Origin: an uncultured bacterium
GTDB lineage: Bacteria; Omnitrophota; Gorgyraeia; Duberdicusellales; CBEUCJ01
Assembly (NCBI GenBank): GCA_965541615.1
Contig: CBEUCJ010000006.1
Coordinates: 1 to 57,675 of the forward strand
Direction: 5' to 3'
DNA length: 57,675 bases
Made by a program: the position numbers and the translations under genes. This document shows positions 16,174-32,038 of the stretch, piece after piece. The notes under the pieces are model-generated. The model did no database searches, was not told the DNA's origin, and was given only the letters and a program-made list of their open reading frames with translations. Each line of letters opens with the position of its first letter. Position 1 is the stretch's first letter.

Positions 16174-16598
16174 GAAAAAAATTAAAATTAGGTGAGATTT
16201 TGTTGGAAGCAACTTCTTTAACCAAAGATCAATTAAAAGAAGCTCTCTATCTTCAAGCAAAAGAAAATATCTCTAAACCTTTAGGTGAGATTTTGGTAGA
16301 AAAAGGATATGTAAGTAAAGAAGATGTGGAGTTAGCTTTAGGAATTCAAGAAGGATACCCTTTTATTTCGGTAAAAAATTATAATTTAATTCCAGATGTA
16401 GTTAAAAAGGTTCCCAAAGAAGTAGCTTTAAGATATTTTATTTTGCCTTTGGATTTAATAGATAATATAATGACAGTAGCTGTACCTTCTATTTCTGAAG
16501 AGATTTTAAATAAAATTGAGGAGTTAGGTTTTAAAGTTAGAATTTTTTTAGGTAGGAAAGAAGAAATAAAAGAAGCTTTAAAAAAGTACTTTGACTGA
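16170..16598 (+). CDS. Stand-alone T2SSE_N / MshEN-type domain protein (predicted c-di-GMP receptor)
   Basis: Residues 6-29 (KLGEILLEATSLTKDQLKEALYLQ) and 37-60 (PLGEILVEKGYVSKEDVELALGIQ) match the tandem 24-residue MshEN motif. The remainder resembles the GspE/PilB N1 domain. GTGA overlap with the GGDEF gene. Confidence 0.75.
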   Translation: MRKKLKLGEILLEATSLTKDQLKEALYLQAKENISKPLGEILVEKGYVSKEDVELALGIQEGYPFISVKNYNLIPDVVKKVPKEVALRYFILPLDLIDNIMTVAVPSISEEILNKIEELGFKVRIFLGRKEEIKEALKKYFD

Positions 16599-17784
16599 AA
16601 GATTTAAACAAACTTCAATAGTAGATCTTACTCACCATCTTCTTGTTGAAGGAGTCAATAAAAGAGCAAGTGATATTTTAATTGAACCTTTAGATGATGA
16701 GTTACAAATAAGGTTTCGTATAGATGGTGTGCTTTCTAAATTTGCATCTTTGCCTTCTGAAATGCATTCAAAAATAATTACCAGAATAAAAGTAATGGCA
16801 GGTTTAGATATTTCTGAAAAAAGATTACCTCAAGATGGTAGTTTTAAAATGAAATTTCCAGGAAAAGAAGTAGATTTCAGAGTCTCAGTAGTTCCTTCAA
16901 GATTAGGAGAAAGAGTGGTCTTAAGAGTCTTGGATAAAGGAAGGCTTATTTTAGATATTAATAAATTAGGTTTAGATCCTTATTCTTTAACTTCTCTTAA
17001 AGAGAGTTTATTAAGACCTTATGGAATAATTTTAATATGTGGTCCTACAGGTTCTGGGAAGACTACAACTTTATATGCTTCCATAAAATATATTGATTCT
17101 GTAGAAAAAAATATTGTAACAGTAGAAGACCCTGTAGAATACCAACTCTATGGTATAAATCAGGTTCAGATAAATGAAGAGATAGGCTTAACTTTTCCTG
17201 CAGTTTTACGTTCTATTTTAAGACAAGACCCAGATGTAATCCTGGTAGGTGAAATTAGAGATTCTGAAACTGCTGAAATTGCTGTAAGAGCTGCTTTAAC
17301 AGGACATTTGGTTTTAAGCACTCTTCATACGACTACAGCCACAGGTGGAGTTATCAGACTGATAAATATGGGAATAGAACCTTATTTAATAAGTTCATCT
17401 TGCCTTTTAATAGCTTCGCAAAATTTAGTCAGATTATTATGTCCAGATTGTAAAAAGCCTCAACCTCTTCCAAAAGTAATTTCAGTTCAATTAGAGCAAT
17501 ATGGATACAAAAAAGAAGAGATCCCAGAAATAATTTACACAGCTAAAGGTTGCGAGAAATGTAATAATACTGGTTACTTTGGTAGAAGAGCTATTATGGA
17601 AGCTCTGATGTTATCTCCTGAAATTAGAGAATTAATAGAAAAAAATGCTCCTGAAAGAGAAATCAGAAAGAAAGCAAGGATGCAAGGAATGAGGAGCTTG
17701 AGAGAAAGAGGATATGAACTCTTAATGAAAGGTTTGACTTCTTTAGAGGAGGTAATAAGAGTAACTTCTGCTCAAGAAGTTTAA
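16591..17784 (+). CDS. PilB/GspE-family secretion ATPase lacking the N-terminal (N1/MshEN) domain
   Basis: Walker A GPTGSGKTT, Asp box, Walker B (DPDVILVGEIRD), His box (TGHLVLSTLHT) and the tetracysteine motif CPDC...GCEKC, which is typical of PilB/GspE and not of PilT. TTG start overlaps the stop of the MshEN ORF by 8 nt. Confidence 0.85.
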   Translation: MTERFKQTSIVDLTHHLLVEGVNKRASDILIEPLDDELQIRFRIDGVLSKFASLPSEMHSKIITRIKVMAGLDISEKRLPQDGSFKMKFPGKEVDFRVSVVPSRLGERVVLRVLDKGRLILDINKLGLDPYSLTSLKESLLRPYGIILICGPTGSGKTTTLYASIKYIDSVEKNIVTVEDPVEYQLYGINQVQINEEIGLTFPAVLRSILRQDPDVILVGEIRDSETAEIAVRAALTGHLVLSTLHTTTATGGVIRLINMGIEPYLISSSCLLIASQNLVRLLCPDCKKPQPLPKVISVQLEQYGYKKEEIPEIIYTAKGCEKCNNTGYFGRRAIMEALMLSPEIRELIEKNAPEREIRKKARMQGMRSLRERGYELLMKGLTSLEEVIRVTSAQEV

Positions 17785-17797
17785 AATAGTTTTTAAG

Positions 17798-19390
17798 ATG
17801 GAAAAGCATTTTTCTAAAAAAGATGAACTAAATTATATGCTTGAGATTTCAGAGAAGCTAAATATTCCTTTTATAAGAATCTCTCAATATCAAATCCCCA
17901 AAGAATTACTCAATCTCATTCCAGAAAAAATAGCCCGCAATTATAAAGTTATTCCTGTAGCTAAATTCGGTCCAGTACTCACTTTAGCTATGGTAAATCC
18001 TCTCAACTTAATGATTTTAGATGAGTTGCGTTATTTAATAGGATTAGAGATAACCCCTGTAGTAAGCACTTCTTCAGAAATCTTGGAAGCAATAGAAATT
18101 TATTATAAGCCTTCTTTTGAGATGAGTATAGAGAAGTTAAAAGAAGAAAGGACAAAAGAAATAACCATTGAGAAGACAACAGCTGAAGAAGAAGAGTTAG
18201 ATATCTATAAACTTACAGAGATGAGTTCACAAGAAAAGGTAGTAAACACCCTCAATAATATTATCTTGGAAGCTTTGAAATCTAAAGCGAGTGACATTCA
18301 TATAGAACCCTATCAAGAACATATCAGAATCCGTTACAGAATAGATGGTGTTTTGACAGAAAAAATGACTCTTCCAAAAGATATGCAAGATGCACTTTTA
18401 GCCAGGATAAAAATAATGTCTAAATTAGATATTACTCAAAGGAAAATTCCCCAAGATGGCAGATTTACTATAAATTTTGAAGACAGAAACATAGATTTTA
18501 GAGTTTCAATTTTACCTACATACTTTGGAGAAAAAGGAGTCTTAAGGATTTTAGATAAAGGAAGAATGAAGTTAGATTTAAGAAGTTTAGGTTTTTCTGA
18601 GCGTGCTTTTGAAATATACAAAGAAGCTATCTTTTCTCCTTTTGGTATCATATTAATCACAGGTCCTACAGGTTCTGGAAAATCAACTACTCTGTACTCT
18701 ATGCTAAATGAGTTAAATACACCTGAAAAAAACATAGTTACAATTGAAGATCCAATAGAATACCATCTGAAAGGTATTGCTCAAATCCAGATAAAGCCAG
18801 AAATCGGTTTAGACTTTGCTCAATGTTTAAGGAGTGTTTTAAGACAATCTCCAGATGTGATTATGGTAGGTGAGATAAGAGACTTTGAGACAGCAGACAT
18901 TGCTATGAAATCTGCTCTAACAGGACATTTGGTTCTAACTACCCTTCACACAAATGATGCTCCATCAGCTATAACCAGATTGTTAGATATGGGAATAGAG
19001 CCTTTTTTGATAGCAGGTGCTTTAAGAATGGTTTCAGCTCAAAGATTGGTAAGAAAGTTATGTGATTACTGTAAAGAGAGTTATATCATAGATAAAAGGA
19101 GTTTAGAAAAATTTGGTATCTTTGTTGATAAAGAAGAAGTCGTTTTATACAGAGCTACTGGTTGTAATGAGTGTGATAGAGTAGGTTATAAAGGAAGAGA
19201 AGCTATAGTAGAAGCGTTTTTAGTAGATGATACTTTAAGAGAGATGATAATTCAGAGAGCCCCTCTCTTAGATATTAAAAAGTATCTGAAATCAACAGGA
19301 ATGCATACTTTACGTGAAGATGGTTTTCTGAAAGCTTTAAAAGGAGCTACTTCCTTAGAAGAAGTAATAAGAGTAACTGCCCAATTTTGA
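17798..19390 (+). CDS. pilB: Full-length PilB/GspE-family type IV pilus / type II secretion ATPase
   Basis: T2SSE_N-like N-domain without the MshEN 24-mer motifs. Walker A GPTGSGKST, DPDVIMVGEIRD, TGHLVLTTLHT, and CDYC...GCNEC. A GspE (T2SS) assignment cannot be excluded. Confidence 0.85.
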   Translation: MEKHFSKKDELNYMLEISEKLNIPFIRISQYQIPKELLNLIPEKIARNYKVIPVAKFGPVLTLAMVNPLNLMILDELRYLIGLEITPVVSTSSEILEAIEIYYKPSFEMSIEKLKEERTKEITIEKTTAEEEELDIYKLTEMSSQEKVVNTLNNIILEALKSKASDIHIEPYQEHIRIRYRIDGVLTEKMTLPKDMQDALLARIKIMSKLDITQRKIPQDGRFTINFEDRNIDFRVSILPTYFGEKGVLRILDKGRMKLDLRSLGFSERAFEIYKEAIFSPFGIILITGPTGSGKSTTLYSMLNELNTPEKNIVTIEDPIEYHLKGIAQIQIKPEIGLDFAQCLRSVLRQSPDVIMVGEIRDFETADIAMKSALTGHLVLTTLHTNDAPSAITRLLDMGIEPFLIAGALRMVSAQRLVRKLCDYCKESYIIDKRSLEKFGIFVDKEEVVLYRATGCNECDRVGYKGREAIVEAFLVDDTLREMIIQRAPLLDIKKYLKSTGMHTLREDGFLKALKGATSLEEVIRVTAQF

Positions 19391-19446: not shown

Positions 19447-21342
19447 ATGAAACATAAATATCTTTTTTTTATTTTTTTATTCTTCTTTTTGAAATATGGA
19501 TTCTCTCAAGATCCAATATCTCCTAAAATTAGAGTAGAAGGTGATACTCAAATAAAGTTTGGAACTTTAAGATTAAAACCTGTAAAAGACACCCCTCCTG
19601 CTTCTCCTCAATTAGGAGATTTGTATTTTGATGGGACTTATCTTTATACTTGGGATGGCTCAAATTGGGTGCAAGTTTCAGAAGAAGGTTCACTTTTCTT
19701 TAATGATGCAGATAATTCCTTATATTTTTATGATGGAGCTCAGTGGCAAAAATTAGGAGAAGGTGAAGGTCCTAAAAAAATAGCTACAAGGATAGTAGCA
19801 GCATCTGACTCTCCAGATAAAAGCAGAGCAGACTATATCTGTGATGGAACAGATGACCAAGAAGAAATAAATCAAGCAATAATAGATGTGTATTTTAATC
19901 AAAATAATCCAGGTTTGGGAGGTTCAGTTTATTTATTAGCTGGAACTTACAATATAAGTGATAATACATCTATTACTTACACAAAACCAGATGGCACTAC
20001 TTTAACTTATTCAACTCCAGGCATCGTTTTATACTCTAATATCTCCTTAATAGGTGAAGGAGCAGGCACAGTTTTAAAAGCAGTTTCTGGCACAGCTTAC
20101 GATATAATAAATGTAATTGGCTCTTCTACAGAGTTTCTCAAAGGTGCTTTTATTTCCCAATTAAGAGTAGATGGAAATAAAGCTAATGTGTCAGGTACAC
20201 ACAATGGAATTTATTTTAAGTATGCTCAGAATTCAAAAATTACAAAAGTATGGATTGAAAATTGTTCAGGTTCTGCAATAAAATTGGAAAACTCTTCTTA
20301 TAATATTTTCTCTAAAAGTTTTCTATTAAATTGCTCAAAAGGAATTTACTTTGATTCAAGTTCTAATAACATCATTGCAAAAAATATAATTGAAAATATA
20401 CCTGAAGGAGCTATATACTTTGCTTCAACTTCAGATAGCAATTATAACATAATAGAAAGCAATATTATTTACAATTTAACAGGAACAGTTACTACAGGAG
20501 CTATAAGATTACATGGTGATTACAATATTTTTTTGGCAAACCATATTACAAGTTCTAAAATAGGAGGCGTTTTAATAGAAGGTGATTACAATCTTTTATA
20601 TTCAAATCTATTAAGTGGTTTAGAAAATTTCGGAGTCAATTTATCTGGTTCTACTTACAATCTTTTATCTTCAAACCACATTCATTTAGGTTCTTCTAAT
20701 TCAGCTTATGGGATAAAAATAGAGTCGAGTTCAGATTCTAATCTTTTAGTGGGAAATTATATTTGGGACCAAGAAGATGATTTTGCTTCACTTTCAATCC
20801 TTGATTCAGATAAACTCCTCATAGCTTCCAATTACATACTTTATCCTGGAATCCCTGATTATGGGATTGAAATAGATAGTCTTTCAAAAGATAACTATAT
20901 TGTAGGAAATCAAATAATAGATAGCAGCACAAATTCTCCAGGAAATATAAAGGACAATGGCACAAATACTCAGTATACTCAAAAAGAAAAAATGACAATA
21001 GAAAAGTATACTTTTCCTTATCCATCTATTTCTTCTCCTTATAAATTAGATACTTTTGTCAATGTACGGGCTCACAGTTATATAGCTTTTAATATTAACA
21101 GAGCAGGCACTTATACTGTTTATTTAACGACAGGCAAATCTCCAGGTGACATACTTATCTTAGAGAACAAGACCAATAATAAAAATAACTTTATTAGAGT
21201 CTATGATTATACTGATCCTGGTTCTCCTTCAGGAAATGCAATAAATTTAAGTGTTTCTTACATAGATTTAGGCAAAAATGATGTTTTAAAACTGATCTGG
21301 AATGGAACTCACTGGATTGAATTAGAACATATTGATAACTAA
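19447..21342 (+). CDS. Secreted right-handed parallel beta-helix (PbH1/NosD-like) repeat protein, paralog 1 of 4
   Basis: Signal peptide ending GFS/QD. N-terminal motif duplicated (GDLYFDGTYLYTWDGSNWVQV and NSLYFYDGAQWQKL). DYICDGTDDQEEINQAI and GGSVYLLAGTYN. Many N.I..N-type beta-helix turns. Conserved ~130-aa C-terminal module ending LKLIWNGTHWIELEHIDN. Confidence 0.75.
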   Translation: MKHKYLFFIFLFFFLKYGFSQDPISPKIRVEGDTQIKFGTLRLKPVKDTPPASPQLGDLYFDGTYLYTWDGSNWVQVSEEGSLFFNDADNSLYFYDGAQWQKLGEGEGPKKIATRIVAASDSPDKSRADYICDGTDDQEEINQAIIDVYFNQNNPGLGGSVYLLAGTYNISDNTSITYTKPDGTTLTYSTPGIVLYSNISLIGEGAGTVLKAVSGTAYDIINVIGSSTEFLKGAFISQLRVDGNKANVSGTHNGIYFKYAQNSKITKVWIENCSGSAIKLENSSYNIFSKSFLLNCSKGIYFDSSSNNIIAKNIIENIPEGAIYFASTSDSNYNIIESNIIYNLTGTVTTGAIRLHGDYNIFLANHITSSKIGGVLIEGDYNLLYSNLLSGLENFGVNLSGSTYNLLSSNHIHLGSSNSAYGIKIESSSDSNLLVGNYIWDQEDDFASLSILDSDKLLIASNYILYPGIPDYGIEIDSLSKDNYIVGNQIIDSSTNSPGNIKDNGTNTQYTQKEKMTIEKYTFPYPSISSPYKLDTFVNVRAHSYIAFNINRAGTYTVYLTTGKSPGDILILENKTNNKNNFIRVYDYTDPGSPSGNAINLSVSYIDLGKNDVLKLIWNGTHWIELEHIDN

Positions 21343-21344
21343 AA

Positions 21345-21854
21345 ATGATTTATGAAGAGGTTTTTAAAGAGTTAAATAAAAGAAAAGTTAAATATGTAGT
21401 AGTAGGAGGCATAGCTCTGGTCTTATATGGTATATTACGCTTTACTGCAGATTTGGATTTAGTAATTCATTTAGAAGAAAAAAATATAGATAGATTCTTC
21501 AAAGCGATCAAAAATTTAGGTTTTAAACCAAAAGTTCCTGTTACAGAAGAAGAATTTAAAGATAAGAAAAAGAGAGCTGAATGGATAAAAAAGAAAAATA
21601 TGATAGTATTCTCTTTTTATCATCCAAAAGACCCCCTTAAAATAATAGATGTCTTTATAAAAGAGCCAATAAAATTTGAATCTCTTTATAAACAGGCAAA
21701 AAAAATAAAAGTAAAAAAGATTACCATTCCTTTAGCTTCTCTCAAGCATCTAAGACAACTTAAAAAAAGAGCAAAAAGAGAAAAGGATTTTATAGATTTA
21801 ATTAAGCTTAAAGATTTTGAAAAAATAGAAAAAGATGAAAAGAAAAAAATTTAA
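21345..21854 (+). CDS. Small nucleotidyltransferase-fold protein (DUF-type, toxin-antitoxin-like)
   Basis: VKYVVVGGIALVLYGILRFTADLDLVI matches the GG...D.D minimal nucleotidyltransferase signature. C-terminal KREKDFIDLIKL. Confidence 0.55.
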   Translation: MIYEEVFKELNKRKVKYVVVGGIALVLYGILRFTADLDLVIHLEEKNIDRFFKAIKNLGFKPKVPVTEEEFKDKKKRAEWIKKKNMIVFSFYHPKDPLKIIDVFIKEPIKFESLYKQAKKIKVKKITIPLASLKHLRQLKKRAKREKDFIDLIKLKDFEKIEKDEKKKI

Positions 21855-21939
21855 AGAAGATCATTTAGATTTATATTTAAAGTCTACTTATCTGCAAAGA
21901 TTAAACTGGTTAGAAAAAGCTCATGAATTTGTTAAAAAG

Positions 21940-23637
21940 ATGATAAAACTGAGTAAAAAAATTAAAGACCTTAAAAAGTTACTTTTCATTTTATTATTTA
22001 TTTTTCTTTTTATCTCTTACTCTTTTTCTGCAAAACTCAATATACCTGACAGCTTAATCATAGAAAGAACTCTTTATTTGGTCCCTCAATCAACACCACC
22101 TACTTGTGATGCAGATTCAGAAGGAAAGATATACTATGATGCAAATGATAAGACTATAAAATACTGTGATGGTTCTGGTTGGAAAGATTTAAGAGGAAAA
22201 GAAAGATCAGTAGCTACAGTAATAGTTGCAGCTAAAGACTCCTTAGATACAGTATGTGATGCTTCAGGTTGTACAAATGAAAGAGCAGATTTTACTTGCG
22301 ATGGAATAAGTGACCAAGTAGAGATAAATCAGGCAATTAATTCTTTGCCTCCTGAAGGAGGGGCAGTCTATTTATTAGAAGGAACATATAATTTAACTGG
22401 TAGTATACATATTAACAAAGATAATGTTTCTTTAATTGGACAGGGAAGAGGAACAATACTGAAAATAAATGGTATAGTTATAAATGCAAGTGGAACTTCT
22501 AGTGATCCTTTAACAGGTATTTTGATTTCTAAATTGAAAATAGAAGGTGAGCTTAGGTTTAATTGTATAGAAAAATCTGCAATTAATAGTCTATGGATTA
22601 AAACTCTACATGATGTTCACTGCTCTAATTATAAACACAATATTTTCTCAGAAAATTTCTTAAAAACTTCTATGGGGAGTTTATGGGTAAATTCTTCTTC
22701 TTCAAATATTTTTGCAAATAATATATTTGAAGGTTTAGAGTTATGGCTTACAGCTAATAGTAATAATAACATAGTAGAAAGTAATATAATTTATAATGTG
22801 CCATTTTATATGGGAGTTGGAATTATATATCTTCAAGATAAAGGAAATATTATTATGGGAAATAGTATACATAATTGTCCAGCAGAACCGACCGGAATAG
22901 GAGTTCGGTTTAATGCAAGTAACAATGTTATCTGCGCTAATAGTATATTTGATGTTAAATTATATGGAATACTTCTTAGCTCATCCCCAGAAGAAAACCT
23001 TGTATCTTCAAATCTAATTCATCTCCTCTCTTCAAATAATGCAAAAGGAATTGATTTAGCTTTTGACAAAAATCTTGTTACAGCAAATCTTATAAAAGAA
23101 GAAGCAAGTTGTAATGCTTTACACTTAAACTCTTTATCTAATGAAAATCTTATTACTTTCAATTATATAGATTCTTCTTATACTTCAGGATATGCAGTTG
23201 ATAATGATGGTTCAGATAACTATTTTGTAGGAAATCAGATAGTTGCACCTAATGCTTTAAAATTTTCTGATGATGGCACAAATACTCAACACATTCAAAA
23301 AGAAAAAATAACACTTGAACGCCAGACTGTAACTTTATCTTCTTCACCTGCAACTTTAGAAGTAGCTACTACTCCTCGTGGGTATGTAGTTTTTGATACA
23401 GGAGGTTCAAACATTCAATTAGGAGACCCAGCAAACAATATTAATGCAATAAATGATGGAAAAGCTCAAGGAGATTTACTCATCTTAGAAGGACCTTCAT
23501 CAGGTTCAGTCACAATTAAAAATGGAGCAAATGTTAAGTTAAAAGGAGGTTTAGATAGAACTTTACAATCTGAAGATACTCTGACTCTAATCTGGAATGG
23601 TTCTGATTGGATTGAAATAGCTTACAGCGATAATTGA
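21940..23637 (+). CDS. Secreted beta-helix repeat protein, paralog 2 of 4
   Basis: The ORF is open from ATG 21835, but a typical signal peptide (MIKLSKKIKDLKKLLFILLFIFLFISYSFS/AK) begins at ATG 21940. Family motifs: GKIYYDANDKTIKYCDGSGW, FTCDGISDQVEINQAI, GGAVYLLEGTYN, and the C-terminal GDLLILEG...LTLIWNGSDWIEIAYSDN. Confidence 0.75.
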   Translation: MIKLSKKIKDLKKLLFILLFIFLFISYSFSAKLNIPDSLIIERTLYLVPQSTPPTCDADSEGKIYYDANDKTIKYCDGSGWKDLRGKERSVATVIVAAKDSLDTVCDASGCTNERADFTCDGISDQVEINQAINSLPPEGGAVYLLEGTYNLTGSIHINKDNVSLIGQGRGTILKINGIVINASGTSSDPLTGILISKLKIEGELRFNCIEKSAINSLWIKTLHDVHCSNYKHNIFSENFLKTSMGSLWVNSSSSNIFANNIFEGLELWLTANSNNNIVESNIIYNVPFYMGVGIIYLQDKGNIIMGNSIHNCPAEPTGIGVRFNASNNVICANSIFDVKLYGILLSSSPEENLVSSNLIHLLSSNNAKGIDLAFDKNLVTANLIKEEASCNALHLNSLSNENLITFNYIDSSYTSGYAVDNDGSDNYFVGNQIVAPNALKFSDDGTNTQHIQKEKITLERQTVTLSSSPATLEVATTPRGYVVFDTGGSNIQLGDPANNINAINDGKAQGDLLILEGPSSGSVTIKNGANVKLKGGLDRTLQSEDTLTLIWNGSDWIEIAYSDN

Positions 23638-23647
23638 AAATAAAACC

Positions 23648-23805
23648 TTGGACACATCCGGAGTGTCCAAAGAACAAAGGTTGAGATGGGTGCCCAAAGA
23701 ACAAGATTGAGATTTGAGGAAATAAAGAAAGTTGTAAGTGAGAAACAAAAAAGGACAGTCCTTAAATGTTACACTTCTGGGGTGTCCAAAAAAACAAGGT
23801 TGAAA
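23648..23805. promoter_or_regulatory. Intergenic palindrome plus direct-repeat cluster upstream of, or overlapping, the start of paralog 3
   Basis: An 8-bp-stem palindrome TTGGACAC-atccgga-GTGTCCAA at 23648-23670. Three copies of GTG(T/C)CCAAA(G/A)AACAAG(G/A)TTGA(G/A)A at 23663-23686, 23690-23712 and 23782-23805. A further palindrome AAGGACAGTCCTT near 23749-23761. Confidence 0.4.
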
Positions 23806-25485
23806 AAAACGATCTTTAAAAAAATTAATTTATTCTTTCTTTTATTTTATTTTCTGCTTTCTCTTTCTTTCTCCCAACAAGACAACCTCTGTATAAAAGG
23901 CACCCTTCAAACTCAAACTCTAACTATAAAAGGTTCAGATACTCTGCCTGCTTCTCCTACAAAAGGTGAAATCTACTACAAAACAGATGAAGATACAATC
24001 TACTTTTATGATGGCTCACAATGGCAGAAAATAGGAGAAGGTCAAGACAAAACAGTAGCTTCTCAAATAGTAAGAACCCAAAACTCAAGATATGATGCAG
24101 ACAAAACCTGTGATGGAACAGATGATCAACAAGAAATTCAACAGGCAATAAATGATTTGGGAAATGATAAAGGTGCAGTTTATTTATTAGAGGGAGAGTA
24201 TAATCTTTCAGCTCTTGTCAGATTAGATTCACAAAATAGTCCTAATTATGATGGAATAAGTGATTTTAATAAGTCTATAATTGGAACAGGTGCAGGGAGT
24301 TTATTAAAAACAGATAGCCAAACGAACATAATTGAACTTTATTATAGTTGGGGAACTAAAAGAAGAAACCTTCTTTCTCAATTTAGAATGGATGGAAATA
24401 AAGTAGGATACGAGGGAATATATGCAATGTATCTTGCTCACAGTTTAATAGACAATGTTTGGGCAAGTAAGTTTTACTGTATAGGAATTAATTTAGGGAA
24501 TGCAAAAAAAAGTATACTTACTTCCTCTTTTGCTGAACAATGTAATTCTCGTTGGTTTTCTTCTGGAATGGGAGCTTATCCATGGGCAGGTTTTAGCTCT
24601 TCAATTCTTGCTAACAATATTAGTATAAGAAATTCACATGGAATTTGTACAGCAAAAGGGATATACAGTAGTATTATTTCTTTTAATATTGCTGGATATA
24701 TTTCTCATATACACAGTGCTAGTATGTATAATAATATCTTTATAGGAAATATTTTTTCTTTAAGCCATCAACAACCTGGGCATTGTATAGTGGTAGGAAA
24801 TAAGGGAGGAAATATAGGGCTTTTTATTGCATCCTTTAATATGGTTTCTTCCTGCAATGTAGCATCTATTGGTTTTGGCTGGTGGTGGTTGGATGATCAT
24901 TTTAATATAATATGGGGAAATATAGCTTCAAGAGACACGGGAACTTTAATTGGAATGAAAAGACATAAATATGGGTTAATTTCTTCTAATTTATGTTTTT
25001 GTACATCAGCTACTATTGGAAGTTGGCGTTGGTGTTGGCGTGGAATTGCTATTACAAACGCATATGGAGGTATTAGTACAGGTGTATATTTTGTAGGTAA
25101 TCTCATTGAAGGGGGCCCATTTTCTCAACAAATTAAAGTCGAAGATCAGGGTACTTCCACCTTCTACACAGACAAACTCAAACTCACTCTTGAAGGAAAA
25201 CCCCTTGATATCTCTAATTCAACTTATACTCTGGATATGACCACAAACCCAAGAACTTACTTTCAATTAAACCCTCAAGTTGATACTACTCTTTCTCTAC
25301 AAGATGGAAAATCACCTGGAGACCTACTCATCTTAGAAAATACAAGTTCTTCTTATACTATTACTATCTCTGAATCAAGAAATATAGAATTAGAAAAAAA
25401 CACTTTAACTTTAGGAGAAAATGACACCTTAATGCTCTTATGGGATGGAACAAAATGGATACAAACAGCTTATGCTGATAATTGA
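23686..25485 (+). CDS. Secreted beta-helix-family protein, paralog 3 of 4 (mosaic partner of paralog 4)
   Basis: ATG 23686 has AAGG 5 nt upstream but gives a 48-aa basic N-region. TTG 23800 would give a canonical signal peptide (MKKTIFKKINLFFLLFYFLLSLSFS/QQ). The N-terminal ~118 codons and C-terminal ~111 codons match paralog 4 with a single synonymous difference. The core is divergent and Trp/Cys-rich (GWWWLDD, SWRWCWRG). Confidence 0.7.
   Translation: MGAQRTRLRFEEIKKVVSEKQKRTVLKCYTSGVSKKTRLKKTIFKKINLFFLLFYFLLSLSFSQQDNLCIKGTLQTQTLTIKGSDTLPASPTKGEIYYKTDEDTIYFYDGSQWQKIGEGQDKTVASQIVRTQNSRYDADKTCDGTDDQQEIQQAINDLGNDKGAVYLLEGEYNLSALVRLDSQNSPNYDGISDFNKSIIGTGAGSLLKTDSQTNIIELYYSWGTKRRNLLSQFRMDGNKVGYEGIYAMYLAHSLIDNVWASKFYCIGINLGNAKKSILTSSFAEQCNSRWFSSGMGAYPWAGFSSSILANNISIRNSHGICTAKGIYSSIISFNIAGYISHIHSASMYNNIFIGNIFSLSHQQPGHCIVVGNKGGNIGLFIASFNMVSSCNVASIGFGWWWLDDHFNIIWGNIASRDTGTLIGMKRHKYGLISSNLCFCTSATIGSWRWCWRGIAITNAYGGISTGVYFVGNLIEGGPFSQQIKVEDQGTSTFYTDKLKLTLEGKPLDISNSTYTLDMTTNPRTYFQLNPQVDTTLSLQDGKSPGDLLILENTSSSYTITISESRNIELEKNTLTLGENDTLMLLWDGTKWIQTAYADN
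23848..24201 (+). repeat. Repeat block A, copy 1 (5' end of paralog 3)
   Basis: 354 bp matching 25641-25994 at a constant offset of 1793. By eye there is one mismatch (24180 T versus 25973 G, synonymous Val). Confidence 0.9.
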
Positions 25486-25492
25486 TTATTAT
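25154..25492 (+). repeat. Repeat block B, copy 1 (3' end of paralog 3 plus 7 nt past the stop)
   Basis: 339 bp matching 26989-27327 at a constant offset of 1835. No mismatch seen by eye, and the encoded 111 aa are identical. Confidence 0.9.
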
Positions 25493-25522
25493 TTAAAATA
25501 AAATTTTTTATCCCAAACCATG

Positions 25523-25556
25523 TGGACACCTCCGGAGTGTCCAAGGATGTTGAAAG
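25523..25556. promoter_or_regulatory. Second copy of the GGACAC/GTGTCC palindrome element, between paralogs 3 and 4
   Basis: TGGACAC-ctccgga-GTGTCCA at 25523-25543, followed by a shortened version of the CCAAGG..GTTGAAAG motif (25537-25556). Confidence 0.4.
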
Positions 25557-25580
25557 TTTTTAAAACTGAGAAGAAGAATA

Positions 25581-27320
25581 ATGATTACAAAAATAAAGAA
25601 AAATAAACTGAAAATAGGAAATATTTTATTCATTATTTTTATTTTCTGTCCCTCTCTTTCTTTCTCCCAACAAGACAACCTCTGTATAAAAGGCACCCTT
25701 CAAACTCAAACTCTAACTATAAAAGGTTCAGATACTCTGCCTGCTTCTCCTACAAAAGGTGAAATCTACTACAAAACAGATGAAGATACAATCTACTTTT
25801 ATGATGGCTCACAATGGCAGAAAATAGGAGAAGGTCAAGACAAAACAGTAGCTTCTCAAATAGTAAGAACCCAAAACTCAAGATATGATGCAGACAAAAC
25901 CTGTGATGGAACAGATGATCAACAAGAAATTCAACAGGCAATAAATGATTTGGGAAATGATAAAGGTGCAGTGTATTTATTAGAGGGAGAGTATTTGGTG
26001 AGTAATGCGATACAGTTAGAATACGGAGCTGGTTTTACTTTTACCCCTGATAGAATAGGAGATAGTTATAAGTCTATAATAGGCACAGGAGCTGGGAGTA
26101 TCTTAAAAGTAAATGCAGATGCAGATTTTTGTGTTTTTAAACTTTATTACGGAAGAAAAGGATGCGCTCTTATGAGTAATTTTCAAATCGATGGAAATAA
26201 AGCTTCAGTAACAGGTAAGAACTGTGGAATTAGTCTTGGGGGTTGGTATCAAGTTGGGTTTAAATACTCTATAGTTGATAATGTATGGATAAAAGATCTC
26301 ACCTCTTGGGGGATTACTCTTGTCAATAGGTTAAGTATTTATACTGATAATTATATTTTATCTGGAATTGATTGTAAAGATGCCCTTAGATTTGGCTCGG
26401 GTAGTAAAGGATTGAGTATATTTTCCAACAATTTTATTACCCCTCAGATTCATTTCTATGGATATGGAGGAGGTAGTATGCAGTGTGATATAATTTCTTT
26501 AAATATTTTTCCTTCTGGCAATATTGATCTTTATGGTTATTGTGCATATTGTAGTCGTCACATTCTTTTAGGAAATATTGTACCTGGAGGTAATATTGTA
26601 ACTAGAGGTATTAATCCTCGTTGCAATCATTTAGTTGTGTGTAGCAATCTCCTTAGTGGAGGAGGAGGAGGAATTAATTACTCAGGTGGGAAAAGCATGA
26701 TTTCAAATAATTTAATCAAAGAAAGTAGTTTCCCTGCTATTAACTATAATGGAGCTGAGTTAGTTTTTAGTAACATGATTTCTGAAAGTGCTACAGGCGG
26801 CTTTTGGGCAGACTGCGGAATATACGTAACAGCTCCGTCTCTTATTTCCTCAAATTATATTTATGATTCTGTTTGTAATGGTGGTTATTACTATGGGATT
26901 ATTATCTGGCATCCATTTTTAAAAAATATTTATATTGTAGGTAATTATATTCAAGGAAATTATACACATCCTATTTATGATAGACCTTCTTCCACCTTCT
27001 ACACAGACAAACTCAAACTCACTCTTGAAGGAAAACCCCTTGATATCTCTAATTCAACTTATACTCTGGATATGACCACAAACCCAAGAACTTACTTTCA
27101 ATTAAACCCTCAAGTTGATACTACTCTTTCTCTACAAGATGGAAAATCACCTGGAGACCTACTCATCTTAGAAAATACAAGTTCTTCTTATACTATTACT
27201 ATCTCTGAATCAAGAAATATAGAATTAGAAAAAAACACTTTAACTTTAGGAGAAAATGACACCTTAATGCTCTTATGGGATGGAACAAAATGGATACAAA
27301 CAGCTTATGCTGATAATTGA
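25581..27320 (+). CDS. Secreted beta-helix repeat protein, paralog 4 of 4 (mosaic partner of paralog 3)
   Basis: Signal peptide (...FCPSLSFS/QQDN). Ends match paralog 3 apart from one synonymous base. The core is divergent, with PbH1-like turns and a GGGGGINYSGG stretch. C-terminus ...LMLLWDGTKWIQTAYADN. Confidence 0.75.
   Translation: MITKIKKNKLKIGNILFIIFIFCPSLSFSQQDNLCIKGTLQTQTLTIKGSDTLPASPTKGEIYYKTDEDTIYFYDGSQWQKIGEGQDKTVASQIVRTQNSRYDADKTCDGTDDQQEIQQAINDLGNDKGAVYLLEGEYLVSNAIQLEYGAGFTFTPDRIGDSYKSIIGTGAGSILKVNADADFCVFKLYYGRKGCALMSNFQIDGNKASVTGKNCGISLGGWYQVGFKYSIVDNVWIKDLTSWGITLVNRLSIYTDNYILSGIDCKDALRFGSGSKGLSIFSNNFITPQIHFYGYGGGSMQCDIISLNIFPSGNIDLYGYCAYCSRHILLGNIVPGGNIVTRGINPRCNHLVVCSNLLSGGGGGINYSGGKSMISNNLIKESSFPAINYNGAELVFSNMISESATGGFWADCGIYVTAPSLISSNYIYDSVCNGGYYYGIIIWHPFLKNIYIVGNYIQGNYTHPIYDRPSSTFYTDKLKLTLEGKPLDISNSTYTLDMTTNPRTYFQLNPQVDTTLSLQDGKSPGDLLILENTSSSYTITISESRNIELEKNTLTLGENDTLMLLWDGTKWIQTAYADN
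25641..25994 (+). repeat. Repeat block A, copy 2 (5' end of paralog 4)
   Basis: See copy 1. Identity stops abruptly after GAGGGAGAGTAT. Confidence 0.9.
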
Positions 27321-27327
27321 TTACCAT
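26989..27327 (+). repeat. Repeat block B, copy 2 (3' end of paralog 4)
   Basis: See copy 1. Identity starts at CTTCCACCTTCTACACAGAC. Confidence 0.9.
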
Positions 27328-27379: not shown

Positions 27380-27757
27380 ATGCAAGCTGATTTTTTAAAA
27401 GAAAGAGCAGAAAAATTCCTTAAGAACGCAAAAGATTTGTTTAATAAAGAAGAGTATGATTTATCTGCTTTTAATTTAGAACAAGCCTGCCAACTTTTTT
27501 TAAAATACTATATCTTTCTTAAAATAGGTGATTTCCCTAAAACTCATTATTTAAAAAGATTAATAAGAGAAGTAGGTAAAGTCTATGAAAAAGAAGAAGA
27601 TGTAGAAAAATTAATTGAAGAAAATATAAGTGTGGTCTCTAACCTTGAAGACGCTTACATTGGAGCAAGGTATCTACCTTATATTTTTGAGAAAAAACAG
27701 GTAGAAAATATGATGGTATTTGTAGATAAGTTATTAAATTTTCTTAAAAAACTATGA
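27380..27757 (+). CDS. HEPN domain protein (PF05168-like)
   Basis: YDLSAFNLEQACQLFLKYYI..., PKTHYLKRLIREV and EDAYIGARY match the classic small HEPN signature. ATGA overlap with the downstream nucleotidyltransferase gene. Confidence 0.75.
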   Translation: MQADFLKERAEKFLKNAKDLFNKEEYDLSAFNLEQACQLFLKYYIFLKIGDFPKTHYLKRLIREVGKVYEKEEDVEKLIEENISVVSNLEDAYIGARYLPYIFEKKQVENMMVFVDKLLNFLKKL

Positions 27758-28101
27758 AGACTCTTACAGATATCTTATTAGAAGAAGCAAAAGAAAATAA
27801 AAAGTATTTCTGTGATTATTTAAAATATTTAAAAATCGTTAAAGAAGAGGTAAATAAGATTTTAAAAGGAGCCAAAGTATATGTTTTTGGTTCAGTAGTA
27901 AAAGGTAATTTCAATTTTGCAAGTGATATAGATGTGTTGATCGTATGTGAGAATTTAGATCCTTCAAAAAGAACTTTGATTAAAACTCTCATCTATAAAA
28001 AAATAGGTTTCTTTTCTCCTTTTGAAATCCATGTAATCACAAAAGAAGAGTATCTTTGTTGGTATAAAAATTTCATAAAAGAAGATGTAAAAGAGATTTA
28101 A
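27754..28101 (+). CDS. Minimal nucleotidyltransferase (MNT, NTP_transf_2), partner of the HEPN protein
   Basis: VYVFGSVVKGNFNFASDIDVLIV matches the GS-x(n)-SD.D Pol-beta-type nucleotidyltransferase motif. Confidence 0.8.
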   Translation: MKTLTDILLEEAKENKKYFCDYLKYLKIVKEEVNKILKGAKVYVFGSVVKGNFNFASDIDVLIVCENLDPSKRTLIKTLIYKKIGFFSPFEIHVITKEEYLCWYKNFIKEDVKEI

Positions 28102-28166: not shown

Positions 28167-29366
28167 ATGCCAGTATTTGTTTATAAAGCAAAAGATTCTG
28201 AAGGAAAGACCACCAAATCTATAATCGAAGCTCCAAGTTATCAGGAAGCTCTATCAAAGTTAAGAGAAGAATTTTCTGCAGTTTTACTTTTAAAAGAGAC
28301 AAAAAGAAAATTTGCAAAGAGAATAAAGAAAGTAAGTTTAGATAGTTTAGCTCAATTCTCAAGAGAGTTAGCTACAATGGTAGGAGCAGGCACTCCTTTA
28401 GTAAAAAGTTTAACGATATTAGGAAATCAATTTAAAGAAAAGACTTTATCAGAAATTGCCCATGATTTAGCAAAATATATTGAAGCAGGAAACAGTTTTG
28501 CAGATGGGTTAAAAAAATACCCCAAAGTTTTCTCTCCTCTCTATATAAATACTGTAGTAGCTGGTGAAACCAGTGGAACTTTAAAAGATGTCTTAGAAAG
28601 ATTAGCTAATTATTTGGAGAATACATCTATTCTTTTAAGAAAAATAAAGACTGCCATGATCTATCCAACAGCAGTAGTTATCGTAGCAATAATTATTACT
28701 TCTTTTTTAGTCTTTAAAATCATACCTGGATTCAAAGAAATATTTGAGAATTTAGGAGGAGAGTTACCTTTACCTACAAGAATAGTTATAAAAGTAAGTG
28801 ATACTTTTAAGAAATATTTCTTTTTCATTGCAGGATTTTTTATTATAAGTTTTTTAATCTTTATTAGACTTATTAACACTTCTCGGGGCAGATTTTTATT
28901 CGATAAATTTAAATTAAAAATCCCTGTATTAGGTCCTCTTTTTCAAAAAGTGGCCATCTCGCGTTTTAGTAGAACTTTAGGGATACTTTTAAGGAGTGGT
29001 GTGCCTATTTTAGAAGCATTAAAAATTGTAAGTAAAGCTGTGGGAAACAAAGTATTAGAAGAATCTATTTTAAAGACTTTAGAAGAGGTAAGAAGAGGAA
29101 AGACTTTAGCTCCTAATTTAGAGAAAAGTAAAATATTTCCTCCAATGGTAATAGAGATGATAAGTGTAGGTGAAGAGAGTGGAGAGTTAGAGAATATGTT
29201 AGAGAATATAGCTGATAGCTATGATACTCAAGTAGATATAGCCACAAACAATCTGGTCTCTCTTATAGAGCCTTTTATCATCATTTTCTTAGGAGTCGTA
29301 ATTGGAGGAATAGTAGTTAGTATGTTTTTACCTATCTTAAAGATCACTCAACTCTTAGGAAGATGA
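28167..29366 (+). CDS. pilC: PilC/GspF-family inner-membrane platform protein
   Basis: 399 aa with two T2SSF-type repeats (SRELATMVGAGTPLVKSL... and SRTLGILLRSGVPILEAL...) and three TM regions. GspF cannot be excluded. Confidence 0.88.
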   Translation: MPVFVYKAKDSEGKTTKSIIEAPSYQEALSKLREEFSAVLLLKETKRKFAKRIKKVSLDSLAQFSRELATMVGAGTPLVKSLTILGNQFKEKTLSEIAHDLAKYIEAGNSFADGLKKYPKVFSPLYINTVVAGETSGTLKDVLERLANYLENTSILLRKIKTAMIYPTAVVIVAIIITSFLVFKIIPGFKEIFENLGGELPLPTRIVIKVSDTFKKYFFFIAGFFIISFLIFIRLINTSRGRFLFDKFKLKIPVLGPLFQKVAISRFSRTLGILLRSGVPILEALKIVSKAVGNKVLEESILKTLEEVRRGKTLAPNLEKSKIFPPMVIEMISVGEESGELENMLENIADSYDTQVDIATNNLVSLIEPFIIIFLGVVIGGIVVSMFLPILKITQLLGR

Positions 29367-30712
29367 AAATTTTAATAAAAAAAATAAAGAGTTTTACTTT
29401 AATGGAACTGTTAATAGCAAGCACAATTTTGATCTTAATATTAACAGCATTCTTAGGGACTTTTAATTCTCTTTTAAACACAGCTCAGCAAGCTAAATAC
29501 ATCTCTTTAGCATTAAACAGATGTCTGCAAGAAGCTTCAGAAATGCAAAAAAAAGGATTTTTAGAGAGTTTGTTTTCTAATTGTTCTTTAGGAGGAAGTT
29601 TTGATATCTATGATGAAGCAAACAATCTTATTGGAAAAGGAAATTTTACTCTTAAAGATAGATACGACCTTTATAGAGTAGAGAATGCTACTAATACTTC
29701 AGCTTTTCCTACTGGGCGTGAAAGAATTTCTTGTGTAGTCTTTGATAACAAAATATGGGTAATAGGAGGTTTTGATGGGACTTACTTAGATGATGTATGT
29801 TATTCTGAAGATGGAGTAAACTGGAACTGCACTTACTCTTTGCCATCTCCCAGAGCTTCACATACTTCAGTAGTCTTTGATAACAAAATATGGGTAATAG
29901 GAGGTTATGATGGAACAAATTACTTAAAAGAAGTCTGTTACTCTTCAAATGGTGCTAATTGGACATGCAAAGATTCTTTACCATCTGGTAGAATCTTACA
30001 CACATCTGTGGTCTTTAATAACAAAATCTGGGTAATAGGAGGTTATGATGGAACAAATTACTTAGATGATGTATGTTATTCTGAAGACGGAGTAAACTGG
30101 AACTGCACTTACTCTTTGCCATCTCCTAGGGCTTTGCATACATCTGTAGTCTTTGATGATAAAATATGGGTAATAGCTGGTTTTAATGGAACGAGCTACT
30201 CAGATGATGTTATCTATTCTACAGATGGTTCTAGTTGGAATACAGCTACCACTAATGCTACAGGTATTCAGAGAGGTTGCCATGTAAGTGTGGTTTATGA
30301 TGGTAAGATGTGGATTTTAGGAGGAAGAGATAAATATGGCACCCCTTATAATGATGTCTGGCATTCAAAGAATGGTAATTGCTGGATAAAAGCAACAGAT
30401 AATGCAAATTGGTCTAAAAGATATCTTCATGCAGGAACAGTCTTTAAAGATAGAATTTGGATACTGGGTGGTTATGGTAATGGTTATAAAAAAGATGTCT
30501 GGTCTTCTACAGGTTATGGAAGATTATTTGAAGCCAAAATCACAGCTTCTTTTAAATTACCAAACGGAAGGATAATAGGAGAAGATAAAAATCTAAATGG
30601 AATTTTAGATGCAGGTGAAGATTTAAACGGAAATGGAGAATTAGATTCTCCAGTTTTTTTAAGGAGCTTTATTTCAAAGAAAAAAAGAGGCTTATATTTA
30701 GGAGAGCAATAG
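29363..30712 (+). CDS. Pseudopilin-like protein fused to a six-bladed Kelch/Asp-box-like beta-propeller and a C-terminal Asp/Asn-rich (Ca-binding-like) segment
   Basis: N-terminal class III signal KS/FTLMELLIASTILILILTAF. Six ~46-aa blades of the form VVFDNKIWVIGG.DGT...DV.YS.DG.NW. Asp/Asn-rich DKNLNGILDAGEDLNGNGELD at nt 30584-30647. ATGA overlap with pilC. Confidence 0.75.
   Translation: MKILIKKIKSFTLMELLIASTILILILTAFLGTFNSLLNTAQQAKYISLALNRCLQEASEMQKKGFLESLFSNCSLGGSFDIYDEANNLIGKGNFTLKDRYDLYRVENATNTSAFPTGRERISCVVFDNKIWVIGGFDGTYLDDVCYSEDGVNWNCTYSLPSPRASHTSVVFDNKIWVIGGYDGTNYLKEVCYSSNGANWTCKDSLPSGRILHTSVVFNNKIWVIGGYDGTNYLDDVCYSEDGVNWNCTYSLPSPRALHTSVVFDDKIWVIAGFNGTSYSDDVIYSTDGSSWNTATTNATGIQRGCHVSVVYDGKMWILGGRDKYGTPYNDVWHSKNGNCWIKATDNANWSKRYLHAGTVFKDRIWILGGYGNGYKKDVWSSTGYGRLFEAKITASFKLPNGRIIGEDKNLNGILDAGEDLNGNGELDSPVFLRSFISKKKRGLYLGEQ
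29782..29850 (+). repeat. Intragenic DNA repeat in the propeller gene, copy 1
   Basis: 69 bp matching 30058-30126 (offset 276 nt, equal to two blades) with one mismatch (29812 T versus 30088 C). Confidence 0.85.
30058..30126 (+). repeat. Intragenic DNA repeat in the propeller gene, copy 2
   Basis: See copy 1. Confidence 0.85.
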
Positions 30713-30752
30713 TCTTGAATATTTTAGATTAATAGATTATTTTTAAAGTGAG

Positions 30753-31286
30753 ATGAAAAATAGAAAATCTTTTACTTTAATGGAGATGATGGTGGTTCTA
30801 AGTGTGTTTGCAGTAATTTCAGGTATAACTTTTACTGCCTTAAAACTTAATGATACTTATAGAGATACAGTATTAACTCAGCTTGAGTTATACAGAAAAG
30901 CTAAAAAAATCCATGATACCATTACAAAAGAACTTTCTCTTTCTCAAATCAATAGAATAAACATTACAGATTCTAATCCAGATGTCCTTACTTTTCAGAT
31001 ACCTCTTTTAAGTCAAATAGACGATAACTATACTATTCCTTGGGGAGCAGAAGAAAATGAAGGATATTATATAAGATACCAATTAATAGGAGATGAATTA
31101 AAAAGAGAAATCTTAGATTCTACATATTCACTTGTCTCTCAACAGACAGTTACTAAAGGTGTAGCTGACTTACAATTTTCTTCAGATTCAGAGAGCATAA
31201 CCATTAATTTTACACTTTCTAGGACTAATATTGAAGGAAGGGTTATAAATTTTACTTCTCAATTTAAAGTTTACTTAGCAAATTGA
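30753..31286 (+). CDS. Minor pseudopilin (prepilin-type N-terminal cleavage/methylation domain protein)
   Basis: MKNRKS/FTLMEMMVVLSVFAVISG class III signal with Glu at +5. Small beta-rich body, GspJ/PilW-like in size. Confidence 0.75.
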   Translation: MKNRKSFTLMEMMVVLSVFAVISGITFTALKLNDTYRDTVLTQLELYRKAKKIHDTITKELSLSQINRINITDSNPDVLTFQIPLLSQIDDNYTIPWGAEENEGYYIRYQLIGDELKREILDSTYSLVSQQTVTKGVADLQFSSDSESITINFTLSRTNIEGRVINFTSQFKVYLAN

Positions 31287-32038
31287 TTATGAAAGTTAAA
31301 GATAAAAAAGGAATAGTAATGTTAAGTGTACTTTTGGTAGTGACTATGGTTTCAGTTTATTTAACAGGTTATGTTATCTGGACTATTTATGATCAAAGAC
31401 ATTTACTTATAGAAAGGAAAATAGCTCTTGCTAAAAGAATAGCAAGAGCAGGTTTAGAAAGAGCAAAAGCTGAATTGTATTTAGATTCAAATTGGATAGA
31501 TGGAGAAGTAAACGGAAAAAATTTAACCGATAATTTAGGAAATCCTATTACAGGACCAGATCCTAACGATCCTGATGAATGGTATTTTTTATATAAAAAT
31601 GTTTCTTTAGGTGAAGGAAATTACACTGTAATGATAGATTACCTTCAAAAACCACGGAGTTGCACTTCAGGATGTAGTTTTTATAAACGCAGATTACATT
31701 TACGTTCTATAGGTAGAGTAGAAAATTTTGTAAAGACTTTAGAAGAATTTATCTGGGAAGAACCTATTAAAAACTTAAATCAAAATACTTATTATGAAGA
31801 GCTCCAAACAGCTATAAATGAAGCTCAGGATAATAATACCCTTGCTATTACAGATGCAGTCTTAAATGAATTATCTATAAATACAAACTCTACTTTAGCT
31901 CAAAATTTTTCTATAAAAGGCTGTTATGATCCTTCATTCCAAACAAGGAATTGTCAAAATTATCTTTCCTATATAGAAGGGAATGTGACTATTTCAGGTA
32001 ATGTTCAAGTAGAGATCGGAGGAATAACTGTAAGATAG
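31283..32038 (+). CDS. PilX/GspK-like minor pseudopilin candidate
   Basis: N-terminal KKG/IVMLSVLLVVTMVSVYLTGYVIW hydrophobic helix without Glu5, as seen in PilX/GspK-type proteins. TTGA overlap with the upstream pseudopilin gene. The assignment rests on position and N-terminus only. Confidence 0.5.
   Translation: MIMKVKDKKGIVMLSVLLVVTMVSVYLTGYVIWTIYDQRHLLIERKIALAKRIARAGLERAKAELYLDSNWIDGEVNGKNLTDNLGNPITGPDPNDPDEWYFLYKNVSLGEGNYTVMIDYLQKPRSCTSGCSFYKRRLHLRSIGRVENFVKTLEEFIWEEPIKNLNQNTYYEELQTAINEAQDNNTLAITDAVLNELSINTNSTLAQNFSIKGCYDPSFQTRNCQNYLSYIEGNVTISGNVQVEIGGITVR

Follow-up and report, generated by a model that had tools for sequence, protein, structure and literature searches.

Near-identical ends and diverged cores in P3 and P4

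How do two neighboring genes come to carry almost identical ends on either side of middles that have little in common? The question is raised by P3 and P4, two of four tandem paralogs (P1 to P4) on contig CBEUCJ010000006.1, of which we analyzed a stretch of 57,675 nucleotides (hereafter the window), a bacterial chromosome segment of ~30% G+C that probably belongs to an uncultivated member of the Omnitrophota. An earlier description made from the letters alone (the sequence-only reading) had called the two genes mosaics shaped by recent recombination. We compared both copies base by base, calculated synonymous divergence (dS) by the Nei-Gojobori method, and set the window against five related metagenome contigs (L001, L002, L003, L005, and L006), whose source samples are ENA ERZ27248082, JGI 3300014887, JGI 3300017593, and Ga0190309. 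P3 and P4 are complete, separately led tandem genes, and their mosaic structure is probably the product of ordinary homologous recombination. The features on which this rests are as follows:

23686..25485, + strand: P3 gene, longest open reading frame (ORF), 599 aa
23860..24201, + strand: block A, copy 1, in P3 (pairs with 25653-25994)
24202..25153, + strand: core 3, the beta-helix body of P3, 952 bp
25154..25488, + strand: block B, copy 1, in P3 (pairs with 26989-27323)
25581..27320, + strand: P4 gene, 579 aa, separately led, its leader and signal peptide differing from those of P3
25653..25994, + strand: block A, copy 2, in P4
25995..26988, + strand: core 4, the beta-helix body of P4, 994 bp
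26989..27323, + strand: block B, copy 2, in P4

The 342 nt of block A contain a single mismatch, at 24180 (25973 in P4), where GTT in P3 and GTG in P4 differ at the third codon position and both encode valine. This synonymous site had been picked out correctly in the sequence-only reading, which also found the block itself but drew it too long: the range 23848-24201, paired with 25641-25994, holds nine mismatches, eight of them within its first 12 nt. Block B, 335 nt long and ending 3 nt past the stop codon, has no mismatch between the copies; the slightly longer range first proposed (25154-25492 and 26989-27327) takes in two, at 25489-25490. The lengths given earlier for the two cores needed no change.

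Between these ends, 97 of the 290 aligned residues of the core 3 and core 4 proteins are identical (33%), with 68 gap columns. The alignment score lies at z = 11 against shuffles, and the two cores are thus homologous, though deeply diverged. At the DNA level their sole match is one 61-nt island at 80%, in keeping with the earlier description of the cores as only distantly related. Identity had been said to collapse abruptly at all four block boundaries. This is so at three of them, namely the 3′ edge of block A and both edges of block B. Block A has a softer 5′ edge: the P3 and P4 leaders are ~55% identical in register (66 nt upstream of the block), and in a gapped alignment identity climbs from ~30% to 100% across roughly 200 nt. 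Chance cannot produce a single difference in 677 nt beside ~1 kb at which divergence is saturated.

The two units are joined by 164 nt of unique sequence running from the end of block B in P3 to the start of block A in P4 (25489-25652), which holds its own copy of a palindrome described below and a leader unlike that of P3. Translation of P3 probably begins at the GTG at 23782, a start that yields a canonical signal peptide. The 96-nt extension of the P3 ORF (23686-23781), which overlaps a repeat and relic region, is probably untranslated, as is, probably, the long N-terminal extension of the P2 ORF.

Synonymous divergence and the age of the ends

The sequence-only reading had suggested contrasting synonymous divergence in the blocks with that in the cores. 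Between P3 and P4, dS was 0.014 in the N-terminal block and 0 in the C-terminal block, as against ~1 in the core and saturation in the leaders. The low values in the ends mean that their near-identity is recent and is not explained by selection on the protein. Flanking and orthologous genes in the related contigs differ from those of the window by a dS of 0.05-0.31, compared with the 0 to 0.014 found for the ends within one genome.

Uniform dS along the genes of related genomes had been named as an observation that would speak against recombination. We found it only in the orthologous pair formed by P4 and its counterpart in L003 (0.21-0.31), as expected from vertical descent; the paralogous and allelic pairs are not uniform. 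The P4/L003 values match those of the flanking genes (0.23 for pilC and 0.28 for the Kelch gene), so that the cores are inherited normally between orthologs. For this pair, the ratio of nonsynonymous to synonymous divergence (dN/dS) in the core was 0.36, with a dN of 0.11 in the core versus 0.03-0.07 in the ends.

The closest related contig, L006, provided a clock. Over 3.5 kb downstream of P4 it differs from the window by 1.08%, a rate at which 7.3 differences would be expected over the 677 nt of the P3 and P4 ends, where only one is present (P = 0.006). Block B of L006 differs from that of the window at 22 of 335 nt (6.6%; P = 5e-11), whereas the next 1 kb holds only four differences. A divergent block B beside a near-identical flank indicates that one lineage has overwritten its block B since L006 and the window split. 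In addition, the four-gamete test, applied to five block B alleles, fails for 124 of the 190 informative site pairs. The ends of P3 and P4 postdate the split from related strains, the signature of concerted evolution. With its uneven dS and ends younger than the nearest strain split, the locus bears out the proposal of recent recombination through conserved ends in place of simple duplication and drift.

Variation among related contigs

Block A is 90-99% identical in L001, L002, L003, and L005. Three of these contigs (L001, L002, and L005) keep the gene order of the P2-P3 junction of the window, and all three carry the P3 leader and block A at ~93-99% nucleotide identity. Beyond block A, they part ways. 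The genes P0002 of L001 and P0003 of L002 match P3 at 94-97% in their N-terminal blocks and at 93-95% in their C-terminal blocks, and core identity, whether with P3, with P4, or between the two genes, is only 26-30%. Swapping of cores among strains, which the sequence-only reading had proposed looking for, is therefore seen as two further unrelated cores between the same ends. A P4-type core is carried by P0005 of L003 (77% aa identity) and also occurs in L005. One slot thus holds at least four unrelated core types across the sampled strains.

Two rearrangements that recombination between the repeated ends had been predicted to yield are present among the relatives. L005 is a hybrid in which the P3 leader and block A are joined to a P4-type core; it has the P4 variant (G) at the site corresponding to 24180 and is the product expected of a crossover between the two copies of block A. 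In L002 a single unit separates P2 from the HEPN gene, in line with the predicted loss or gain of units, and in L001 a second unit begins downstream of a transposase gene. Breakpoints at the 3′ end of block A scatter over 40-80 nt between allele pairs, which points to homologous and not site-specific recombination. The L006 contig starts ~20 nt before block B, and L001 ends within the repeated leader.

Mosaicism extends to other members of the family. Between strains, P2 (window 21835-23637 versus L005 258-2090) has ends that are 94-100% identical around a core of 56-85% nucleotide identity; its core dN/dS is 0.82 versus 0.08-0.45 in the ends, and its core dS is threefold higher. Over a longer distance, P2 and its ortholog in L015 are roughly evenly diverged (59, 57, and 74% across the three regions). 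The N-terminal block of P1 is 75% identical to the position-matched gene of L015, and its core and C-terminal block are closest to other loci. Family-wide, cores of the P3/P4 group stand no closer to each other (27-31% identity) than to paralogs of other species (30-33%). In metagenome-assembled genome (MAG) C19 (L010, L011, and L013), N-terminal blocks are 88% identical within the genome and two of three C-terminal blocks are closest to another genome; its family genes appear, from these sequence comparisons, to be chimeric at the domain level too. A Saccharibacteria locus (L023) considered as a parallel tandem case was rejected, its repeats sitting inside giant ORFs.

Protein architecture, fold, and family

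P1 to P4 have a common layout consisting of a signal peptide, a small N-terminal beta domain, the N-cap motif ADxxCDGxxDQxEIxxAI, a beta-helix, and a C-terminal Phage_depo_C sandwich. Block A encodes the signal-peptide cleavage region, the small N-terminal beta domain, the N-cap helix, and the first rung (...VYLLEGEY). Since it runs on through the first helix rung, it is not a linker between domains. Block B takes in the last helix turn, a linker, the whole Phage_depo_C beta-sandwich, the stop codon, and three further nucleotides. Phage_depo_C (PF25692) scored above its cut-off of 25 bits in P2 (54.8), P3 (41.4), and P4 (42.1), and was not detected in P1 by the Pfam scan.

AlphaFold2 models of P4 and P3 (predicted local distance difference test scores of 78.8 and 76.8) consist of stacked short strands forming a right-handed beta-helix. 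Their top Foldseek matches were the A-modules of AlgE4 and AlgE6, the RbmB lyase, and the tailspikes of Sf6, HK620, and CBA120, with E values down to 8e-9; the family profile matched AlgE6 and AlgE4 in the PDB at about 2e-20. On these models, P3 and P4 are predicted to be Sec-secreted right-handed beta-helix proteins resembling tailspikes or depolymerases. An AlgE-type epimerase function was ruled out, as the catalytic segment YGFDPHE falls on non-conserved positions of the family, and the proteins may instead be binders or some other kind of enzyme.

We found 33 proteins of this family, whose few named members are annotated as Candidatus Omnitrophica; it is small and occurs mainly in Omnitrophota-type MAGs. 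An exhaustive HMMER search of 1.84 billion representative proteins returned no relative of the P3 core at E ≤ 1e-3 and so pointed to no donor lineage. That core is unusually rich in Trp, Cys, and Gly, as in GFGWWWLDD and SWRWCWRG. An exact look-up of the P4 sequence gave no record. A protein search with the P4 core alone returned only itself, and one with the joined N- and C-terminal blocks gave two weak matches and missed known relatives, the word index being patchy for such queries. Profile searches of genome contigs yielded no relative with the close-family alignment and only relatives of 24-35% identity with a wider one, which indicates that the species has no representative genome there. 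In viral contigs the relatives were distant (25-52% identity) and mostly confined to the N-cap region, and PHROG matches to the family were weak. A recent phage origin of the cores is accordingly unsupported.

Genomic context

The paralogs lie in a pilus-like gene cluster. In the 5′ part of the window, sugar-uptake and glycosidase genes are followed by a GGDEF protein, two PilB/GspE-type ATPases, P1, a nucleotidyltransferase, P2, P3, and P4; after P4 come a HEPN/MNT pair, pilC/gspF, a Kelch propeller, a pilin, the dcw cell-division cluster, and addAB. Apart from P3 and P4, the features of this region are:

12172-16173: protein of 1333 aa with GGDEF, AAA ATPase, and HEAT-repeat parts, directly upstream of the ATPases
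16591..19390, + strand: two tandem PilB/GspE-family ATPases, the first without an N-terminal domain
19447..21342, + strand: P1, older paralog
21345-21854: AbiEii/DUF6036-like nucleotidyltransferase, 169 aa, between P1 and P2, overlapping the longest P2 ORF
21835..23637, + strand: P2, older paralog
27380..28101, + strand: HEPN/minimal nucleotidyltransferase (MNT) pair, toxin-antitoxin-like, between P4 and pilC
28167..32038, + strand: the rest of the pilus-like cluster, with pilC/GspF, Kelch, pilin, and a 251-aa ORF with a hydrophobic N-terminus
29363-30712: Kelch beta-propeller protein with the prepilin-type start MKILIKKIKSFTLMELL... (KSFTLMEL)
47725-53639: AddAB recombination genes

The order of GGDEF protein, two PilB-type ATPases, two to four paralogs, pilC, Kelch-pilin, and pilin recurs in L008, L009, L012, L014, L015, L016, L019, and L020. 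The paralog array lies inside or beside the pilus cluster in at least eight Omnitrophota-type MAG loci, and its position varies. The place of the GGDEF protein, conserved in L015, L016, L019, and L020, suggests control of the cluster by c-di-GMP. Two assembly-type ATPases stand in tandem in the cluster, which has no evident retraction ATPase; a PilT identity for 16591-17784 was rejected, as it scores 522 and 509 bits as PilB/GspE-type versus 184 for the PilT family.

The nucleotidyltransferase has a homolog of 71% identity at 11208-11660 of L015, in the same position between paralogs of a distant MAG. L003 lacks the HEPN/MNT pair, and its P4-type gene runs directly into pilC. The Kelch gene contains 138-nt tandem Kelch repeats at 29730-30240 and neighbors pilC in most related loci; its product is probably a pilin-fused propeller and a candidate pilus-tip or minor-pilin adhesin. 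In L003 (5003-5479, compared with window 30754-31390), the 3′ part of the pilin gene and the start of the next ORF are inverted between two direct copies of the 5′ end of the pilin gene, at the contig end. Two readings are possible: a true rearrangement at the pilin locus, or a fold-back introduced in assembly. A promoter and terminator scan found fewer promoter-like sites than in shuffled sequence and was uninformative on separate expression.

Palindromes and the relic of a RAYT-like transposase

Upstream of the P3 and P4 units lie three further elements:

23650..23668, no strand assigned: palindrome GGACAC-N7-GTGTCC, copy 1, 13 nt past the P2 stop, at the upstream edge of the P3 unit
25524..25542, no strand assigned: palindrome GGACAC-N7-GTGTCC, copy 2, 39 nt past the P3 stop, upstream of P4
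23744..23776, + strand: 33-nt relic that matches the 3′ end (..KKDSP stop) and the terminal palindrome of a Y1 transposase resembling the REP-associated tyrosine transposases (RAYT)

The palindrome occurs only twice in the window, where 0.01 copies are expected by chance, and likewise stands before the equivalent units of L005 and, in two copies, of L001; it may be a terminator-like hairpin, an operator, or a repetitive extragenic palindromic (REP)-like element. The 33-nt relic is found upstream of P3 in the window and likewise in L001, L002, and L005, and P4 is without it. Full transposase genes (283-292 aa) are present at 3170-4149 of L001 and 2700-3695 of L002, directly downstream of the variable gene with the novel core. 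The two transposases are 98% identical and are flanked by long perfect palindromes (GCAATAAAAAAGGAC-A-GTCCTTTTTTATTGC), and their best NCBIfam match is the REP-associated tyrosine transposase (56 bits, family cut-off 80). No transposase was found in the window.

Other routes to variable middles left no trace in the window. The Pfam scans of 40 window ORFs contained neither a reverse transcriptase nor a site-specific recombinase domain, and each core occurs only once there. The view of the sequence-only reading that the locus is not a diversity-generating retroelement is thereby upheld. A scan of 19.3-32.1 kb for inverted repeats detected only low-complexity pairs and the two palindromes; with no flanking inverted repeats and no recombinase, variation by a shufflon or invertible segment (R64 pilV type) was rejected. 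An initiator of the pilE type, a G-quadruplex (G4), was likewise rejected, there being no motif of four G3+ runs spaced by N1-7 on either strand of the window.

Recombination through conserved ends and its alternatives

We consider it probable that the P3/P4 mosaic was produced by homologous recombination, in the form of gene conversion, unequal crossover, and allelic replacement, within a spike-like gene family. On the sequence evidence, the 342 nt at the 5′ side and the 335 nt at the 3′ side act as tracts of homology for ordinary recombination of this kind. Conversion between the neighboring copies has recently made both ends identical; the A and B tracts also permit unequal crossover, by which a 1.8-kb unit is removed or added and hybrids form, and allelic replacement between strains, by which several core types have come into one slot. 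There is no sign of a dedicated recombinase or of programmed switching. As for function, fold, signal peptide, and gene context suggest that the cores would set ligand specificity, probably for glycans. The conserved ends may have secretion, folding, or docking roles common to all copies, and selection on the surfaces or host cells that are bound or degraded may keep the cores diverse. P3 and P4 would then be secreted glycan-binding or glycan-cleaving spikes acting with a pilus-like apparatus.

Several points weigh against this explanation. A single assembly underlies both the tandem layout and the near-perfect match of the ends, and the related contigs are only five, all short and none covering two complete units. 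The direction and number of conversion events are not resolvable. A RAYT-like transposase stands by the variable gene in two of the related contigs, so that a mobile element may have contributed. The P3 core is without a detectable relative, which leaves re-use of that core as a cassette unsupported. Finally, the function rests on fold and gene context, and enzymatic activity is uncertain, YGFDPHE not being conserved. A farther-reaching form of the idea, which we think unlikely, would make the array the target-range module of a host-dependent nanobacterium: pilus-associated beta-helix spikes would choose among envelope glycans of host or prey, and the ends, the palindrome, and the RAYT-like Y1 transposase would form a system that exchanges cores between copies and strains, as a cellular counterpart of phage tailspike swapping.

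The sequence-only reading had likened the locus to antigenic or adhesin variation. The anatomy is indeed alike, but the likeness is one of analogy only, both copies being complete genes. If variation were programmed as in pilE/pilS, vls, or tprK, silent cores would be copied at high frequency into expression sites through A and B. Conserved ends around a variable middle, four core types in one population slot, and independent assemblies that break at block boundaries (L006 and L001) all fit. Yet each copy is an intact ORF with its own leader, and tblastn and blastn searches with both blocks and both cores found only the four complete paralogs in 57.7 kb, with no silent cassettes and no truncated or promoterless fragments of A, B, or a core. 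The G4 motif is absent from the window, and the P4/L003 cores diverge at the background synonymous rate with the dN/dS given above, which points to stable inheritance. We therefore judge a programmed system improbable. Mobilization or duplication of whole units by the RAYT-like Y1 (HUH) transposase and the palindromes, with the ends as recent copies, also merits little credence. In its favor are the near-identical transposases directly downstream of novel-core genes in L001 and L002, their REP-associated match, their long flanking palindromes, and the 33-nt copy of a transposase 3′ end upstream of P3 in four sequences. Against it, the window holds no transposase and P4 no relic, and the NCBIfam score is below the family cut-off. 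Moreover, the P3 and P4 leaders are strongly diverged, hence the units are not recent whole-unit copies, and the breakpoints lie in coding sequence where homology ends, not at the palindromes.

Two further explanations were weighed. The tandem might be false, stitched together from the alleles of two strains, or polishing might have equalized merely similar ends. The window does look like a metagenome-type contig, repeats of ~340 nt are longer than short-read k-mers, and relatives with single-unit arrangements exist (L002, and L005 with L006). Allelic variants, however, cannot create the unique 164-nt junction with its own palindrome and leader; site 24180 still tells the copies apart; and in independent assemblies of other samples these ends enclose other cores, L001 having a second unit downstream. 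An artefact is, in our estimate, a small risk. Smaller still is the chance that tandem duplication was followed by fast divergence of the cores under positive selection and preservation of the ends by purifying selection, with no recombination. The raised dN/dS of the P2 core between strains, as against that of its ends, and the higher dN of the core than of the ends in the P4/L003 pair are of the kind that it predicts. But purifying selection on a protein cannot erase synonymous differences, and end dS of 0-0.014 stands beside a saturated core and leader; the excess of change in orthologous cores is 1.5- to 3.5-fold, too small to account for 33% versus 100% identity; and the hybrids and four-gamete failures show recombination directly. 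The synonymous-site data already contradict divergence of this kind, and homologous recombination between conserved ends is the reading that we retain.

Significance of the array

Omnitrophota are uncultivated and mostly ultra-small bacteria, many of which, to judge from genomic evidence, depend on other cells, and type IV pili have been proposed as their attachment devices (PMC10066038). The Omnitrophota literature that we searched discusses type IV pili and giant proteins, and such arrays are not mentioned in it. A pilus-linked array of secreted, tailspike-like proteins, its cores reshuffled by recombination and unlike even in closely related strains, is a testable candidate for a determinant of partner specificity in this phylum. 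The locus is also a clean natural case of concerted evolution limited to gene ends. For assemblers and annotators it carries a caution, since related contigs break exactly at the A and B repeats.

Comparison with known systems

In anatomy and mechanism, the locus most closely resembles, by analogy, the bab paralogs of Helicobacter pylori. There, intragenomic gene conversion among babA, babB, and babC creates chimeras and changes locus occupancy (PMC4552749). Full-length paralogs, homogenized ends, and chimeric alleles in the population are common to both. The bab products, however, are outer-membrane beta-barrel adhesins encoded by dispersed copies, whereas P3 and P4 are predicted secreted beta-helix proteins encoded in tandem. 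The middles differ far more in P3 and P4 (33% aa identity), with at least four types per slot, and no slipped-strand phase-variation repeat was seen.

The proteins themselves recall the tailspikes of phages such as P22, Sf6, HK620, and CBA120. Related phage genomes carry unrelated beta-helix bodies behind one conserved N-terminal part. The likeness lies in a right-handed beta-helix set between conserved attachment or assembly modules, in the Foldseek neighbors Sf6, HK620, and CBA120, and in the Phage_depo_C domain. P3 and P4 differ in being chromosomal, in lying in a pilus-like cluster by the dcw operon, in having Sec signal peptides, and in conserving both ends and not the N-terminus alone. 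Neisseria pilE/pilS, Borrelia vlsE, and Treponema tprK likewise exchange variable segments via conserved flanks by non-reciprocal homologous recombination. Unlike these, P3 and P4 are intact genes, and the window contains no truncated cassettes, no split between archive and expression site, and no G4.

Two further systems resemble the array in its setting. The tapirins of Caldicellulosiruptor are beta-helix substrate-binding proteins encoded beside a type IV pilus locus (10.1101/359786). They are alike in fold and pilus location, but they come from another organism and another substrate setting, and are not reported as mosaic tandem paralogs (10.1101/359786). The MAT fibers of Bdellovibrio are phage-like surface proteins of a bacterium that preys on other cells; their ligand-binding parts are chimeric and diversified, and one of the proteins is specific for the glycans of a particular prey (PMC10769870). 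They are variable-tip fibers encoded outside pilus clusters, whereas P3 and P4 would be beta-helix spikes with two conserved ends, and a host-dependent lifestyle is one that we infer for the present organism only from its probable phylum (PMC10066038). Taken against these systems, P3 and P4 represent a known and mechanistically ordinary way of varying surface proteins, found here in a new protein family.

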